From assembly GCA_041389045.1 (NCBI GenBank), contig JAWKSQ010000001.1, forward strand, positions 75,063 through 139,062: a stretch of 64,000 nt of DNA, given 5' to 3'. Shown here piece by piece: positions 9,098 to 64,000 of this stretch (its first letter is position 1; the number at the start of each line of letters is the position of its first letter). The DNA comes from Minisyncoccota bacterium. Lineage in GTDB: Bacteria > Patescibacteriota > Minisyncoccia > Phycocordibacterales > UBA918. The position numbers were made by a program, and so were the translations under genes. The notes under the pieces are model-generated. The model had not been told where the DNA came from. It ran no database searches and saw only the letters and a program-made list of their open reading frames with translations.

Positions 9098-9273
9098 AGT
9101 TGAGGATGGACTATTACCCTAACCTAGATTAGTGGCTTCATCGGAAAAGCTTGTGTTTATGTGTATATGTGCTTTAATAAGCACAGCGAAACAGCACTCC
9201 TCCGAAACAAGGTGAAAGCGTTGATCAGGTGAAGTAAAGTTTTGTCGTTAATCAAAGTATAAATAAAAATCAA

Positions 9274-9504
9274 ATGACAGGTTCAATTGTTCGAAAGCGA
9301 GATAATGGTTATGGTTTTATCAAGCCAGATAATGGTGATAAGGATGTTTTCTTTCACGCACAATCTCTAGTAGACGTCGCTTTTGACGATCTGCAAGAAG
9401 GTGACTTGGTTACTTTTGATGTAGAGCAAGGTCCAAAAGGCCCAGCTGCAACAAATGTACGCCTAGCATCAAACGGCGGCGCTGCTGCTAATGACGCTCA
9501 ATAA
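9274..9504 (+). CDS. cold-shock domain protein
   Basis: 76-aa ORF with an RNP1-like GYGFIKP and an RNP2-like DVFFH. A long 5' leader (9100-9273) is typical of csp genes. Confidence 0.85.
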   Translation: MTGSIVRKRDNGYGFIKPDNGDKDVFFHAQSLVDVAFDDLQEGDLVTFDVEQGPKGPAATNVRLASNGGAAANDAQ

Positions 9505-55732: not shown

Positions 55733-56092
55733 CTAAAGAAAGTGTTTCCAAACCGATCCAATACGGTTCTTTGTTTGGATCTTGTGGTTTTCATTGCAAA
55801 GAAGTTCGTAGGCCACTTCACTTACTGCTCGACCGTCTAGAACCTCATGTTTTTGAAGGTCTTCGGTTAGTACGATAAGGCCTCTCCACAAGCTTTTGTC
55901 ACACATTGTGTCATAGTCGTTCTTGTTGAAGGTATAGCAATACGCTGGTATAACACAAACTACGTCACGGTACTGAAACCTATAAATACGCAGTAGGGAA
56001 CCTACTTGTTCAAGAATGAATCCATGGTAGGAATCTACTTTGCTCGGTGAGTAGAAAACAAGTGACCCAGGTTCAAGGTAGGAATCTCCCAT
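55733..56092 (-). CDS. hypothetical protein
   Basis: 119-aa ORF with AGGAGG 7 nt upstream of the ATG. No family is recognised. Confidence 0.5.
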   Translation of the reverse strand: MGDSYLEPGSLVFYSPSKVDSYHGFILEQVGSLLRIYRFQYRDVVCVIPAYCYTFNKNDYDTMCDKSLWRGLIVLTEDLQKHEVLDGRAVSEVAYELLCNENHKIQTKNRIGSVWKHFL

Positions 56093-56213
56093 TTCAAAGC
56101 CTCCTAGTTTGTTAGGAACAAAAGATCAATTTAAAACTATCTCATCATAAATAACGGGAGAATGCAATTTTGAGTTTTAGGTGAACAAATTAAAATATTT
56201 TCAAAGGGTGTAT

Positions 56214-56462
56214 GGTTACGAATCACTAAGTATATTTGGTTAGTTAGGTTAGAAAATAACTTCAGGGATCGTCCTGACGGCCACCAATGTATTTTATTTC
56301 GCAAACTTATAAAATACATGGTGCCGCGGGACAAGGCTCGCTCATAAATATCGCTCCGCCGTTCGATCCCTAGACGCAACGTACGAAGGTACGTTGCTTG
56401 GGCGCACAAATAAAAAACTGCCAAAATGTATGTGGGTGGTCACGAATCACTAAGTATATTTG
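56214..56462. repeat. 25-nt direct repeat (24/25 identical) heading two diverged ~220-nt modules
   Basis: GGTtACGAATCACTAAGTATATTTG at 56214-56238 and GGTcACGAATCACTAAGTATATTTG at 56438-56462. Confidence 0.7.
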
Positions 56463-56573
56463 TTCGTCTTCGACTCCAAATCTACTAAGTGTTCTCGACC
56501 CCACCTCACTCGTTCGCTAGCTCACATCGCTCCGGTTCGCGCACACGCCGCTCCTGCCGCAGGGCAGGAGCCA

Positions 56574-56615
56574 AATAGAAAAGCTTCAGTCTCGCGAGAC
56601 TGAAGCTTTTCTATT
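56574..56615. terminator. strong symmetric terminator hairpin
   Basis: aaatagaaaagcttcagtctcg/cgagactgaagcttttctattt. Confidence 0.7.
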
Positions 56616-56853
56616 TGCGTGTGTGCCCCGTGTCGGTATCGGAAAATTACCCATCAAGCCCAGTAAGGGTTCCCGAGCGACTCAGGTCGCTCTTTTCTGA
56701 CCCCTCTCGGTAGGGGTATATTTATAGCCAGATGTTACAAATCTGACACCCAAACGGCTATTTAAAGAGCATTTTCAAAACGATTCTAAAATACGGATAT
56801 GGCTCTAAATAAGGATATTTTCGTACAAATGGACGGTAGTATAATTAAGGTAT

Positions 56854-57570
56854 ATGTACACAAAAAATATGCTATCTACTCTCCGACAAGCACTCGTTCA
56901 ACGAAAGGCTATTGAGGAACAAGTAAAGCAGGCGCTTAAGCCTATGGAACCCACGCTCCGCTTCATTGCAGAGCTCCAAGCCGTTTATCAGGAGGTATAT
57001 GGATGTGAATCTTCCACTGAGATATCAGTGGAAGCAATTCCAAAGCCAGCGAAGCAGGTAAAGCCAAAAACGAAGAAAGAGGTATTGTTCACTCCAGCGA
57101 AGGTTGATTTGCCATCAGGAGCAACGTGGCGAGACATTACTATCGCGTTTCAAAATAAAGAGGACGTTGAGATTAAATACAAAGACACGATTATTGGTCG
57201 ATACTCTCACCAAGACCTTGGCTTCGCTCAGGAAAACACTGGATGGAAAAACCCAGACCGCCGATGGGCACTGCTTACCGTGTTAGCTGTCGCAGGTGAG
57301 TTCAAATCACAGACAATAATCACCAAAGACCACTTGATGAATGTTTGCGACGTAAAAACACAAAACGCAGTAGAAAAACGAAAGAGTGATTTGGCAACGG
57401 GACTACGATTAGCGTTCGGTATCCAAGAAGAACCGTTTGAGAGATATTCCCATGAAACAGGCTATTGTTCCAAATTCACCCTTCTTCCAGAAGCAGATTT
57501 ACGTGGAAATGGTGAATTACGTCATTCAGGAGTAACTGATTTCAGCGATTCTATATACAGCGATGACTAG
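56854..57570 (+). CDS. hypothetical protein (island ORFan)
   Basis: 238-aa ORF with TATAAT at 56840-56845 just upstream. No family is recognised. Confidence 0.45.
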   Translation: MYTKNMLSTLRQALVQRKAIEEQVKQALKPMEPTLRFIAELQAVYQEVYGCESSTEISVEAIPKPAKQVKPKTKKEVLFTPAKVDLPSGATWRDITIAFQNKEDVEIKYKDTIIGRYSHQDLGFAQENTGWKNPDRRWALLTVLAVAGEFKSQTIITKDHLMNVCDVKTQNAVEKRKSDLATGLRLAFGIQEEPFERYSHETGYCSKFTLLPEADLRGNGELRHSGVTDFSDSIYSDD

Positions 57571-60446: not shown

Positions 60447-60574
60447 GTGGCTTACGATTTATAAATTGAGCGGATACACAAAGCCCGCTACCAGGAGAGC
60501 CAAAGCTCCTATGCAGGTTTCCCCACATAACGTAAGCCACGCCCTGATAACGGGTTTTCTATGGCTTACGATTT
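60447..60574. promoter_or_regulatory. three-part alternative-pairing element (GGCTTACG copies)
   Basis: gtggcttacg (60447-60456) and tggcttacgattt (60562-60574) are direct copies. cgtaagccac (60531-60540) is complementary to both. Confidence 0.4.
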
Positions 60575-60770
60575 TCCGACCATACCGTCAGATGAATCTG
60601 TCGGGTTAGGCCTTTGCTGTGTAATGAACATAATAGCTCAGATTGAGCTATTAGTCAGTACCTTAGCTTACATATTGGGTCTTGCGAAGGGGCACTTACC
60701 GACACTTGCTTCCACACCATCGTGTCACTTTGACTTCTAAATAAGGTAGAATATAAGTATATTTTGTTCT

Positions 60771-61382
60771 ATGCACACTCTTAAAAAAACAGCTCAAACT
60801 AACGACATAATAATCAGAGAAGCATTGGTAAAGCGGTTAGAAAACGAATACGATAGCAACCCAGAGTATCGTGTTATTCCTGAACTAGGATTGTGGCATG
60901 GTGCTTCAAGAGTAGACGTAGCGGTGGTCAATGGTGTTTTACATGGATTTGAAATAAAGAGTGACAGAGATACTCTTAATCGTTTACCCTCTCAACGAGA
61001 AGCCTATAATTCAGTCTTTGATAAAGTCACCCTCGTGGTTGGAGCAAAACATTTTGTTGATGCATTTAAAATAGTCCCTAACTGGTGGGGTATCGAGACT
61101 GCTCATTTAGATGAAAATGGGTCTGTCTTTTTTAATATAATTCGCCAAGCAGGAGAAAATCCTAAACAAGATGAGATTTCAATTGCACGATTGTTATGGA
61201 AAAACGAAGCACTGGATCTTCTTGAAAGCGAAGGTAAGGCCGGGGGTGTTCGCTCAAAACCAAGGGAATTGGTTTATGAAAGAGTAGCAGAGACTATTGA
61301 GATTGATGTTCTAAAAAAGTATGTCAGGAATGTGCTTCAGGGTCCACGCCAGAATTGGAGGTCTGATTTGCAGCTAGCGTAA
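60771..61382 (+). CDS. sce7726-like protein with PD-(D/E)xK nuclease-like signature
   Basis: 203-aa ORF. PELGLWHGASRVDVAVVNGVLHGFEIKSDRDTLNRLPSQREAYNSVFDKVTLVVG matches my recollection of the sce7726 family and carries an E...D...EIK restriction-endonuclease-like core. Confidence 0.6.
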   Translation: MHTLKKTAQTNDIIIREALVKRLENEYDSNPEYRVIPELGLWHGASRVDVAVVNGVLHGFEIKSDRDTLNRLPSQREAYNSVFDKVTLVVGAKHFVDAFKIVPNWWGIETAHLDENGSVFFNIIRQAGENPKQDEISIARLLWKNEALDLLESEGKAGGVRSKPRELVYERVAETIEIDVLKKYVRNVLQGPRQNWRSDLQLA

Positions 61383-62457
61383 GATGGTGGTTGATACTAA
61401 TTGTCAGCCATGTAGTCGGACTTCCGGGTTTGGTATTTGCTGGTGATGCAATTCGAGACACTTCAGTATCGCCAAAAGAATAGGTGTCTTGTTTGTAGAA
61501 ATCACGCTTCACTAGTGTCTGAGCATGTCCGATATATTGCTCTCTGCCCGGGCCTTTAATTCCAGTTTTACGATCTATGTGCCCAGGCTTTTTGCCACGG
61601 AAGATATACCATTTTTCATCGTCGGTGTATCGAATGCTGGCACTTCCAATAGCAGCTACATACTCGTACACAGGGTGTTGAGTTGTATAGTCAGAAAAGA
61701 AAGGTGTACGAGAAGTTATCGCATCACGAATATTATTCCAGAGTTTCCAATCCAGTCTATCCAGTTGATGCACCTCACCTGAATTAAAATTGGTTAAATC
61801 TTTAGGAAAAGCACCGCCAGACACTATGAAGGAACGCCACTCTTTTAGTTTTGGTAAAAGCGAAAGTTTACTTACAATATCAGTTGCATCGGTTCCACCA
61901 TCGATGATGCGTAAATCGACCAATAAATCTAGGTTGTTAATGTCTAGTTTGTTAACCTCGACAAACTCAGTTATGTGACGTGATAAATCCTTATCTTCAA
62001 GGTGTGATCTATCAATGCGAATACATAACCCATGTCCACTTTCTTTGGCATAAGTTACAGCAATTCCACGGGTCTCGGTATCTGCATTAGTACTAGTTAC
62101 AGGGATCACATAAGTAACTGGGATGGAGAACAAATCAAGTTCGCTTGAGGCAGATAATATCTCTTTAAAAGATGTGGCACGAAGGTCGCTATCCAAAAGA
62201 TGTACATCAATAAACACAGGTTCACGTCCACAAGACTTAAGTAAGCTTGTCGCAATGTTAGGTAAGGTTTCTAGAAATTTTTCCTTGGGAGTTTTCTTAA
62301 CCTCCCGAGTCTCCTTATCAATTGTTGGGGCTGGCATTATAAACTCAATCAGAGGTGTAATTTTTCCTCTGTCTTTTGGAAACAACTTCTCAACTGCAGC
62401 GATTTCGGCGGGTCTCCAACGCAATATAGGCACATATGGTTTAATAATTTCTGTCAT
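61324..62457 (-). CDS. 'beta protein' (sce7725-like) family protein, function unknown
   Basis: 377-aa ORF. The N-terminal YVPILRWRPAEIAAVEKL...ITPLIEF is typical of the family annotated as beta protein / sce7725-like (from recall). It starts 2 nt after the upstream gene's stop. Confidence 0.55.
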   Translation of the reverse strand: MTEIIKPYVPILRWRPAEIAAVEKLFPKDRGKITPLIEFIMPAPTIDKETREVKKTPKEKFLETLPNIATSLLKSCGREPVFIDVHLLDSDLRATSFKEILSASSELDLFSIPVTYVIPVTSTNADTETRGIAVTYAKESGHGLCIRIDRSHLEDKDLSRHITEFVEVNKLDINNLDLLVDLRIIDGGTDATDIVSKLSLLPKLKEWRSFIVSGGAFPKDLTNFNSGEVHQLDRLDWKLWNNIRDAITSRTPFFSDYTTQHPVYEYVAAIGSASIRYTDDEKWYIFRGKKPGHIDRKTGIKGPGREQYIGHAQTLVKRDFYKQDTYSFGDTEVSRIASPANTKPGSPTTWLTISINHHLTLAANQTSNSGVDPEAHS

Positions 62458-62459
62458 AT

Positions 62460-63671
62460 TTATTCTTTAAAAATATCTGCGAAGTATTTACGCACATTCA
62501 AATCAGGGTTGTTAACTATTTTATTTAGATAAATGAAATTTTGATGCTTGAATCGAATCATTCCTGCAATTACTGCGATATGCACCTGTAGTTCATTCGC
62601 TAAATCTTCTGTGGAAAATTGGTTTGGTGTAGTTTTAGCTGCACTAGTTTCCCATTTACTATTTGGAAGAATGGTTTCTTCAGCAAGTGAGTCAGCTTCA
62701 ACCTCTTTTGGGTCATTTTCTTTACTTTCCTTGTTTTGCAATTCTTCATCAAAGAAGTATTCAACGCCGATGTTGTAGTGAAGGGCGACGTGCGCAAGTT
62801 CATGCATGAGCGTAAACCAGAAGTTGTCGAGGCGATTATGACGAAGTGTAAGCCCGATTATAGGATTATCTTTGTCAGCAAAGAAAGTAGCTCCGTCTAA
62901 GTGAGACTTGGGAAGATGTGGCTCAATAATCAACTTGATACCATGTTGGTTTAAGTAATCTTGGGCAAGAAGCGGACCATTTTCTTTAGTACTGAGTTGC
63001 ACCACTTGGCGCATGAAAGCTAAGTCCACTGTCCCACTCTTATATTTTGTTGGTACCGCTATTTCAGATGCTTTTTGTATTACTCTCGTTCCCCACGCAA
63101 GCAGAGAATTATTATCGGTGCGAGGAGCAGTCCTAAAAATTGTTTTACGATACAGAACCGCTGTTTGAGGCTGATTAAACGAAGCGAAAAAATTACTGAC
63201 TAGTTCTGATTTCCCAAACTCCTTAAGACTTTTGTTACCAAAGTACCCTCGGCGTTCCATTGCTTTTACCAGTGCAGTGTCCCAGTTTTCTGACTCAGAG
63301 ACCTTGGTAGATTTTTGGATGAGCACTTTTGCTGGGATTCCAAGGCCAGATGAAAGTGCGCGAACCATATCAAGTGAGAGTTGTCGCTTGCCAGAAAGAA
63401 TTTCAGATACTCTGCCAGCACTACCGATGTAGGGCATTAAGTCAGATGGTTTAAGGTCCGCTTGTTCCATACGAAATTTGATTGCTTCGACTGGGTCTGG
63501 GAGATTTTCAGGGAATGTTTTTGACTCGTAGTCTTTCACTAGTGCGGTTAGAAGAAGTAGGCGGTCACCATCTACGGTTCCAGATTCTGGGTCACGGTCA
63601 ACTAACTCCTCAATGAGGTTGAGAGCATCTCGGTATTCTTCCTTAGTTGTGATAATTTTTATGTTGTCCAT
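62460..63671 (-). CDS. HigA-like XRE HTH antitoxin domain fused to ImmA/IrrE-type metallopeptidase
   Basis: The ATG at 63671 lies 4 nt after the higB stop. The N-terminal half has DPVEAIKFRMEQADLKPSDLMPYIGSAGRVSEILSGKRQLSLDMVRAL (HigA-type HTH). The C-terminal half has the HEXXH motif LMHELAHVAL. Confidence 0.8.
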   Translation of the reverse strand: MDNIKIITTKEEYRDALNLIEELVDRDPESGTVDGDRLLLLTALVKDYESKTFPENLPDPVEAIKFRMEQADLKPSDLMPYIGSAGRVSEILSGKRQLSLDMVRALSSGLGIPAKVLIQKSTKVSESENWDTALVKAMERRGYFGNKSLKEFGKSELVSNFFASFNQPQTAVLYRKTIFRTAPRTDNNSLLAWGTRVIQKASEIAVPTKYKSGTVDLAFMRQVVQLSTKENGPLLAQDYLNQHGIKLIIEPHLPKSHLDGATFFADKDNPIIGLTLRHNRLDNFWFTLMHELAHVALHYNIGVEYFFDEELQNKESKENDPKEVEADSLAEETILPNSKWETSAAKTTPNQFSTEDLANELQVHIAVIAGMIRFKHQNFIYLNKIVNNPDLNVRKYFADIFKE

Positions 63672-63675
63672 ATAG

Positions 63676-63963
63676 CTATTTGATTTCCCACTTCTCGTAC
63701 TCCCTATGCGTACCAATGTTCTTTACAAACACGACACCGCTGTTATACGCAACCTTAACCCACAGGCGGTAATTGTTTCCATAGATATTAAACACGACTT
63801 GTTTGTTACCTATGAGGCTCGCCCTAGGGAAGTGTGCTTTCAACTCATGGGGACCACTCCATGTATGTTCCTTTATTTCTGCTTCCCAAGCATCAATATG
63901 AGACCGAGCGTCAGAGTGCTTTTGCTTAAAGGCATCAAGAATTTCTTTTCCGATTAGTTCCAT
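63676..63963 (-). CDS. higB: type II toxin-antitoxin toxin, HigB family
   Basis: 95-aa ORF. ..HIDAWEAEIKEHTWSGPHELKAHFPRASLIGNKQVVFNIYGNNYRLWVKVAYNSGVVFVKNIGTHREY.. closely follows the HigB-type mRNA interferase pattern. Confidence 0.75.
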   Translation of the reverse strand: MELIGKEILDAFKQKHSDARSHIDAWEAEIKEHTWSGPHELKAHFPRASLIGNKQVVFNIYGNNYRLWVKVAYNSGVVFVKNIGTHREYEKWEIK

Positions 63964-64000
63964 GTTGTTAGTAATATATTGATACCTTTTTATTAGTTCC

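Follow-up and report, generated by a model that had tools for sequence, protein, structure and literature searches.

What are the two diverged modules that lie in tandem at 56208-56431 (module 1, + strand) and 56432-56626 (module 2, + strand) of a 64,000-nucleotide (nt) stretch of contig JAWKSQ010000001.1 from a Minisyncoccota bacterium? The modules occupy a gap of 762 nt between small minus-strand open reading frames (ORFs) and a genomic island, and a first-pass annotation of the stretch (the whole of which is called the window here) had taken them for RNA paralogues encoded by free-standing genes in a divergent intergenic region. On the sequences at hand, the idea of RNA paralogues survives in modified form, and the pair appears to be more than a duplicated promoter. 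Modules 1 and 2 are tandem copies of a cassette of ~200 nt; this unit is ORF-less, constrained in its structure and located at the attachment (att) core of an island array, and what had been read as free-standing genes are discrete units inside the tRNA-Arg attachment core of that array.

Both modules open on the same sequence. The near-identical 25-mers that had drawn attention to the locus, GGT[T/C]ACGAATCACTAAGTATATTTG at 56214-56238 and 56438-56462, proved to be unique: the 64 kb hold no further match at ≤3 mismatches, and 100 shuffles gave none. The 25-mer grows to a 31-mer (28/31 identical, starting at 56208 and 56432 with a spacing of 224 nt) that we call the box. Its two copies (56208-56238, +, and 56432-56462, +, the second with TGGT directly before it) form the left edges of their modules and contain a -10-like AGTATATT, at 56229-56236 and 56453-56460 respectively. 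Beyond the 31-mer the two modules are hardly alignable. A second shared motif, ATCGCTCCG at 56350 and 56526 followed by (CC)GTTCG, is present as originally described, but is weak when taken alone, the gapped 16-mer ATCGCTCCG..GTTCG arising by chance in 18 of 100 shuffles. In module 1 it belongs to the motif ATCGCTCCGCCGTTCG (56350-56365, +), which resembles the CTCCG motif of module 2 (56526-56539, +; family consensus CATGnCTCCGnCCGG, predicted to be unpaired); the family alignment alternatively sets 56318-56341 of module 1 under the family CTCCG box.

Counted from the start of this shared motif, hairpin P2 begins after 26 nt in module 1 (gcaacgtac-GAAG-gtacgttgc, 56376-56397, +) and after 24 nt in module 2 (gctcctgcc-GCAG-ggcaggagc, 56550-56571, +), in both cases with 9 bp and a 4-nt loop, GAAG and GCAG respectively. 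Perfect hairpins of this 9-bp/4-nt type number three in 56207-56616 (shuffles, n = 20,000: P(≥1) = 0.002, P(≥2) = 0). In module 2, P2 is part of a three-way junction (56539-56626, +) in which P1, the 10-bp outer stem formed by 56539-48 and 56617-26 (+), surrounds P2 and a palindrome, P3 (56572-56617, +). The very strong terminator assigned to this module takes the form of a perfect 23+23-nt palindrome, a 23-bp hairpin with the end TTTTCTATTT, with A-tract and T-tract flanks resembling those of a bidirectional terminator and with equivalents in all family copies. Further left, module 2 carries the linker motif TAAGTGTTCTCGACCCC (56486-56502, +; family form GCTAAGTaCTCTCGACCCC) and is nearly intact, only hairpin P0 having been lost. 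Module 1 keeps the box, the CTCCG-like motif, P2 and the A/T-rich P0 (56281-56323, +; arms 56287-97 and 56309-19, 100% complementary), and has neither P1 nor P3. Both modules fold much more stably than shuffled sequence, with + strand z-scores of -5.3 (module 1) and -9.6 (module 2) and nearly as strong - strand values of -3.0 and -8.5. A 95-aa ORF across module 1 (56137-56424, -) starts with TTG, overlaps the hairpins and has no PHROG match, in line with the earlier view that it lacks support; across module 2 a 47-aa ORF (56460-56603, +) is the candidate coding frame.

Do the modules have relatives elsewhere? Our comparison set consisted of 30-odd contigs carrying homologues of the 238-aa protein encoded by the first gene of the island (loci numbered L001 onward), and in it the modules belong to a family of ~200-nt ORF-less units from five lineages of related metagenomic contigs. 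Homologues of module 2 are found in L001, L004/L005, L006, L024-28 (there without the box), L029 and L030 (twice); box homologues are found in L001 (two), L004/5, L006, L024, L029 and L030. The family plan comprises the box TGGTCACGAnTnACTAAG with its -10-like hexamer, the linker GCTAAGTaCTCTCGACCCC, the A/T-rich hairpin P0, the unpaired CATGnCTCCGnCCGG and a tight three-way junction with P1 (10-11 bp) as the enclosing stem around P2 (9 bp, GCAG loop) and P3 (13-23 bp, mirrored A-/T-tracts).

From lineage to lineage the stem sequences are wholly different; P2, for example, reads GCTCCTGCC in the window, GAAAGCAAC in L006, GAAACTGAA in L001/L004 and GAAAGCAAA in L024. Among seven sequences from the five lineages, 95.9% of cells are nevertheless paired and 34 of the 54 pairs are compensatory, both sides having changed, a level of covariation that 0 of 500 shuffles reached; controls in which the partner was slid along are only 41-52% paired. 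P2 is 100% paired, with eight of its nine pairs compensatory and the GCAG loop invariant, so the replacement of stems under a kept geometry that had been proposed from the two window hairpins extends to the homologues, which add four further P2 stem sequences, all of 9 bp with the GCAG loop. P1 covaries as well, with TT/AA in L006 and C/G in the window, and P1-P3 are almost purely Watson-Crick, nearly without G-U pairs. The unit is under selection for single-strand folding, and P0, P1, P2 and P3 are kept by compensatory changes. The first-pass annotation had made its case depend on finding homologues and covariation in other genomes; the related contigs and a covariance model provide both, in five lineages.

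That covariance model (R1) recovers every module-2-type copy and nothing else (window 97.6 bits, E = 2.6e-22): in no locus does it reveal another copy, and it misses module 1. The latter is recognised by the family sequence profile only, with E = 1e-4 over 56209-56384, which bears out the view of the two modules as diverged paralogues of one structured non-coding unit. Its P0 aligns with the P0 of L001, L004, L006 and L024. Because module 1 keeps the family P0, the 'extra hairpin' ascribed to it at 56281-56323 is the ancestral P0; the hairpin is present as described, but it is no addition, having been lost from module 2, and module 1 is a decayed tandem copy. In L001, too, the module is preceded by a short second copy of box plus linker. 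Across its 64 kb, the window has just the two adjacent modules, and no dispersed copies of the kind that mark repetitive extragenic palindromes and bacterial interspersed mosaic elements (REP/BIME) or miniature inverted-repeat transposable elements (MITEs).

No ORF is conserved across the module copies. In L001 (3275-3330) and L004 (4632-4690) we observed a strong Shine-Dalgarno sequence (AAGGAG, in L001, or GGAA), an ATG and a 10-codon ORF, M-S/L-P-P/S-G-T-Q-A-R-N, running from P0 to P1; the window, L024 and module 1 have no such start codon, the frame is not conserved, and the ORF is probably not functional. The Rfam scan that had been suggested returned no family, neither the two modules nor their homologues reaching the gathering threshold of any Rfam 15 model, and at E ≤ 10 the best matches are palindrome artefacts far below threshold (MIR7696, 23 vs 83 bits; sot2652, 20.6 vs 61). 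ARAGORN detects no tRNA or tmRNA cloverleaf in 56000-57000, blastn against 50,697 phage records gives no match, and the exact box 21-mer has 0 matches in IMG/VR. A module-motif scan of IMG/VR gives nine matches, all of which we ascribe to chance since the covariance model finds nothing in them. For the phage packaging or antitoxin roles once considered, no support was found.

Where do the copies sit? The attachment core, GTGT/GCCCC at 56621-56629 (a slash marks the join), corresponds, in reverse complement, to the 3' end of tRNA-Arg(UCU), and it is from here on that the window is homologous to all related islands. Left of GTGCCCC, L003, L007, L017 and L020 have sequences unrelated to that of the window, and this point is therefore the junction. 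In L029, ACCTGTGT/GCCCCC runs into tRNA-Arg(TCT) (2209-2281, -), and in L024, AAGTGGT/GCCCCC runs into tRNA-Arg(TCT) (9246-9320, -) with the encoded CCA included and TGGT/GCCCCC as the core; since GCCCCC is continuous with the tRNA gene in both, the core is the tRNA 3' end. Two of the marks of a tRNA-targeting island are present, namely identity of the core with a tRNA 3' end and unrelated flanks that meet a conserved element at the core. The tRNA-Arg(TCT) gene was not found within the 64-kb window with ARAGORN, and the window's island continues past base 64000. L024 holds a complete island, with the core, a conserved left arm that we call block C, a leader and a 231-aa gene at its start, and hairpin H (GACTTACTGAGA...CCCCTCTCGGTAGGTC) and TCTTGCTAAGTGGT/GCCCCC-tRNA at its end; no recombinase or integrase is encoded in it.

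Protein-coding cassettes share the plan core, block C, cargo, hairpin H, and are joined to each other and to the tRNA gene at the core. The junctions come in two lengths. Short ones are H-TCGCTAAGTGGT/GCCCC-block C in L031, where two cassettes are directly joined, and H-GCTAAGTGGT/GCCCCC-tRNA in L024, where a cassette meets the tRNA gene; long ones, in L004/5, L029 and L030, read H-...GGGTGGT/CACGAG...module...CCTGTGT/GCCCCC and continue into block C or the tRNA. Comparison of the two therefore identifies the module as a discrete insert of ~200 nt exactly inside the core, and the existence of short junctions means that cassettes can join without it. L030 carries a whole array: block C, Fic, H, module, core, block C, genes for proteins of 58 aa and 107 aa and for a helix-turn-helix (HTH)/M78 protein, H, module, core, block C and a 238-aa gene. 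In the window, the order is two tandem modules, core (56621-29), block C and the cassette led by the 238-aa gene.

Several further observations concern these junctions. Three block C copies separate the cassettes (Fic; 58 aa + 107 aa + HTH_3/Peptidase_M78; 238-aa gene) at L030 659-4865 and L004 2990-3130, and the repeated structured spacers of the L030-type array measure ~420 nt. The motif J2 (CCCCTCTCGGTAGG), which closes block C, is also the 3' half of H, and insertions are found directly after it, including the large serine recombinase gene of L001/L002, the sole recombinase seen in any island copy; this gene (449 aa; L001 3494-4843, -, and L002 125-1474, -) lies after J2, between block C and the leader, and L004 and L029 have other insertions at exactly the same point. 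A GT at the join is common to all junctions. At L024 9236-9262 and L031 2680-2700 the junction CTAAGTGG-TGCC-CCACTAG is dyad-symmetric between the cassette right-end tail and the tRNA acceptor/T-stem, and could be a recombinase site. The box was considered as a relic of the tRNA 3' end and this was discarded, its similarity to tRNA not being significant (p 0.06-0.88). For the idea that the linker is a fossil att junction, comparison with the cassette tail plus tRNA gives marginal values (p 0.005-0.08) driven by TTGCTAAGT. A search of the literature on islands and integrases of bacteria of the Candidate Phyla Radiation (CPR) found nothing relevant.

What, then, might the module do? Tentatively, and with somewhat less than an even chance of being right, we favour the reading that it is an island-borne small-RNA cassette gene which doubles as a bidirectional terminator and insulator at the island junction. 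With the -10 motif of its putative promoter box at the left edge and P3 at the opposite edge, the module would form a compact transcription unit of ~150 nt. Initiation would be expected near 56468 for module 2 and 56244 for module 1, and elongation past the unpaired conserved motifs and the hairpins would end at P3, yielding an RNA of ~150 nt; the transcript of module 1 would read through into module 2. As P3 abuts the core and has both its A-tract and its T-tract paired, it would terminate convergent genes too, that is, transcription coming from the right from the tRNA gene in L029 and from the serine-recombinase gene in L001, and the module would thereby insulate neighbouring cassettes. Consistent with such a gene, a covariation-backed structure and a terminator-type P3 at the 3' end are observed, the -10-like AGTATAWT of both window boxes is the motif found at two island gene starts, and the boxes of L001 have TATAAT and CATAAT.

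A number of observations weigh against the small-RNA gene. The boxes have no -35 element and were not flagged by a sigma-70 consensus scan; L004/L029/L030 have a degenerate -10 motif (CAAATT/CAAATA), the L024 box has none, and AGTATAWT is not enriched window-wide (7 found vs 5.5 expected). A terminator scan of the window did not list P3, because its T-tract is paired inside the stem. P1 has its 3' strand past the U-tract of P3, running 3 nt into the core, and therefore cannot form in a terminated RNA of either strand, yet it covaries. All four helices, P0-P3, read on the + strand, have 10 G.U and 7 A.C pairs, so no strand is assignable, and the near-absence of G-U in P1-P3 also fits a constraint at the level of DNA or on both strands. 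Finally, the family comprises five independent lineages only.

These same observations give weight to readings in which DNA and not RNA is the functional molecule. A close rival, possible if on balance doubtful, is that the module is a junction element without an RNA product of its own, either a tRNA-proximal arm or the accumulated scar of integrative cassettes. It would contain sites for recombinase or accessory proteins (the box, J2-type motifs) together with the bidirectional terminator P3, which would re-terminate the tRNA gene after integration and insulate cassettes, and the window pair would be left over from successive integrations or from a local duplication. Such an element agrees with the position of the module, always at the att core between cassettes or beside the tRNA, with the repetition of J2 in both arms, with the identity of TTGCTAAGT in the linker to the cassette right-end tail, after which comes a weak resemblance to the tRNA T-arm (p 0.005-0.08), and with P1-P3 being near-pure Watson-Crick, as suits function on both strands. 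The P3 variant common to L029 and the second copy of L030 (L030b) is moreover C.A on the + strand and G.U on the - (tRNA) strand, and the left-hand genes have their own terminators before hairpin H. Protein-binding arms, however, conserve sequence, whereas here the non-terminator helices P0 and P2 keep perfect stems with replaced sequences, the loop of P2 being invariant; the box also has a -10 motif of island-gene type and its similarity to tRNA is not significant (p 0.06-0.88). A second rival is a folded single-stranded DNA recombination site, like integron attC or CTX-phage attP, at which a recombinase moving cassettes would go by structure and not by sequence: P2 and P3 would extrude, and the halves of P1 would form a duplex containing the crossover point CCTGTGT/GCC. 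That point does lie in P1, 3 bp from its base; P1 covaries (L006 TT/AA, window C/G) while being unable to form in the terminated transcript, the stems are perfectly Watson-Crick with their sequences replaced, and one and the same structured module separates the cassettes of the L030 array. We nonetheless consider such a site decidedly improbable: R/L boxes (GTTRRRY) and extrahelical bases are missing, there is no integron-type tyrosine integrase, only the large serine recombinase of L001/L002, whose family acts on duplex DNA, and the short junctions of L024 and L031 lack the module. Since P1 covaries despite having no place in a terminated RNA, and G-U pairs are few, the junction element and the folded site both retain some probability. 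An unlikely, more speculative proposal is that the module is a mobile ORF-less RNA/structure cassette belonging to a previously undescribed integron-like system of cassette arrays that in CPR bacteria would be anchored at tRNA-Arg(UCU). Site-specific recombination would shuffle units with att half-sites at their ends (TGGT/... and ...TGT/GCCCC), and it is as a folded structure that the covarying three-way junction, crossover point included, would be read.

Two simpler explanations fare worse. That the modules barely align outside the 31-mer, and that the motif ATCGCTCCG..GTTCG is not significant alone, might suggest chance similarity or, as the first-pass annotation allowed, a duplicated promoter fragment with incidental hairpins; the 25-mer occurs in 0 of 100 shuffles, however, even one 9-bp/4-nt hairpin has P = 0.002 where three are present, and covarying homologues exist in five lineages, which refutes this reading and leaves it very little probability, the promoter fragment being excluded by the family, its covariation and the covariance-model matches. 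Hardly credible at all is a protein-coding origin through the 95-aa ORF (-), the 47-aa ORF (+) or the 10-aa peptide of L001/L004. The ORFs exist, and in L001/L004 an AAGGAG or GGAA, an ATG and a 10-codon ORF span P0 and P1, but none has family matches, starts are TTG, the reading frame changes from copy to copy, the window, L024 and module 1 lack the ATG, and substitutions keep base pairs, not codons.

How does the module compare with known systems? Islands accreted in tandem at a tRNA 3' end share with it a core that is the tRNA 3' end, left flanks that differ at the core between genomes, an intact tRNA at the far end (L024, L029) and serial cassettes with a repeated junction sequence (L030). 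Here, in contrast, the junction repeat holds a ~200-nt unit whose structure is kept by compensatory change, and most cassettes are without an integrase, a large serine recombinase being the only one seen. Targeting of tRNA genes is classically the work of tyrosine integrases. With integron attC sites and ORF-less integron cassettes the module has in common a cassette array with separators conserved in structure and replaced in sequence, a crossover in a stem and units some of which have no ORF. It differs in having no R''/R' (RYYYAAC...GTTRRRY) or L''/L' boxes, no extrahelical bases and no attI/Pc platform; no locus encodes IntI or a tyrosine integrase, the array is anchored at a tRNA gene, and module-less junctions occur. 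Island- or prophage-borne small-RNA genes with an intrinsic terminator are similar in size (~150 nt), in a -10-like element at one edge and a strong terminator at the other, in conserved unpaired motifs, in covariation-backed hairpins and in their location in mobile DNA, whereas the module is without an Rfam family, has a covarying outer stem P1 that spans the terminator, and behaves like a cassette with att half-sites at its ends. P3 resembles bidirectional intrinsic terminators, being a long perfect hairpin with mirrored A-/T-tracts between convergent genes (cargo +, tRNA/recombinase -), but it is embedded in a conserved three-way junction with an invariant-loop hairpin, neither of which a plain terminator needs. 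LOOT RNA (RF03000) is a structured RNA that, as the module does, travels with this island family (window, L001, L003), yet it is unrelated in sequence and structure, lies ~4 kb away on the other strand, and its model is not matched by the modules. We do not assign the module to any named family.

To the right of the core, block C (56622-56718, +), the conserved left arm of the protein-coding cassette, contains a terminator-like hairpin (56675-92) and J2 (56701-14), and is followed by the leader of the 238-aa gene (56719-56853, +), with an invariant palindromic 34-mer (56726-59) and AGTATAAT at 56838-45, 8 nt before the ATG. These ~230 nt upstream of the gene (56622-56853) have 79-93% DNA identity in all related contigs and are more conserved than the downstream protein (51-78%). 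Just upstream of the putative promoter of the 238-aa gene are TTTTCAaAACGATTCTAAAA, which is an imperfect palindrome, and a pair of direct GGATAT repeats. Block C was examined as a tRNA-like gene, which neither ARAGORN nor Rfam detects. A block C 20-mer has 0 matches in IMG/VR, and invariant 21- to 28-mers of the leader yield one new contig in GTDB genomes, one in JGI metagenomes and none in IMG/VR.

The 238-aa gene itself (56854-57570, +) is the first of the island cassette and no ORFan, as had been thought: its product has 36 homologues in CPR bacteria at 51-78% identity, and protein P0001 matches 98% of the ORF at 100% identity, which places the window in a metagenome-assembled genome of Candidatus Paceibacterota. 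The protein belongs to no Pfam or PHROG family, and a protein-pattern scan of IMG/VR found no relatives. In the AlphaFold2 model (mean pLDDT 74), an N-terminal helix of 48 residues is joined through a disordered linker to a C-terminal domain whose best PDB structure matches, all weak, are OmpR/PhoB-type winged helices (CadC 5ju7, E = 0.017; AdeR, RitR, BaeR); a profile search of PDB sequences gave no match. To judge by this model, the protein is probably a DNA-binding regulator and not a recombinase. AGTATAWT occurs 7-8 nt before the ATG of this gene (56838-45; ATG 56854) and of a 203-aa gene (60756-63; ATG 60771), and neither has a Shine-Dalgarno site, which suggests that island genes with this motif have leaderless mRNAs or leaderless-type promoters. 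Where the 238-aa proteins share 72-77% identity, the host PilM proteins share 55-62%, a contrast that would fit a mobile or strongly constrained element.

The genes for RuvABC, TyrRS, a PilB-like protein, TsaE and PolA identify the window as bacterial chromosome. Left of the modules, polA is followed by a 235-aa ORF without a family match and then by the two small minus-strand ORFs, one of 119 aa (55733-56092, -; GGAGG 8 nt 5' of the ATG, no family match) accompanied by one of 140 aa. The island to the right consists of the 238-aa gene, two N6/N4 DNA methylases, a terminase-small-like HTH protein, LOOT RNA (60496-60612, -; Rfam RF03000), a phrog_984 protein, a 'Beta protein' and an HTH/M78 protein. 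LOOT RNA scores 67-80 bits in the window (60496-60612, -), L001 (8638-8756, -) and L003 (9792-9906, -), in each after a 146-aa HTH gene and a small minus-strand gene; because it has the same relative place in three independent island copies, it seems to be one of the components that make up this CPR island family. In the right-hand part of the island (61324-63716, -), the 'Beta protein' (PF14350) adjoins a 418-aa HTH + Peptidase_M78 (ImmA/IrrE-like) protein, and the two may be a regulatory or defence pair.

To our knowledge, which here includes a literature search, few regulatory RNAs or mobile-element mechanisms have been described for the CPR/Patescibacteria with their tiny genomes. The modules add a new structured non-coding family, absent from Rfam and with strong covariation, that is tied to a precise site, the tRNA-Arg attachment core between cassettes carrying methylases, Fic, HTH/M78 regulators and LOOT RNA. 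Under either reading, as RNA or as folded DNA, the coordinates and the covariance model can be used in searches of CPR metagenomes and metatranscriptomes. If the module is a small RNA, it would be a candidate regulator that moves together with mobile or defence cargo; a module read as folded DNA would point to an integron-like cassette system outside the known integron lineages.

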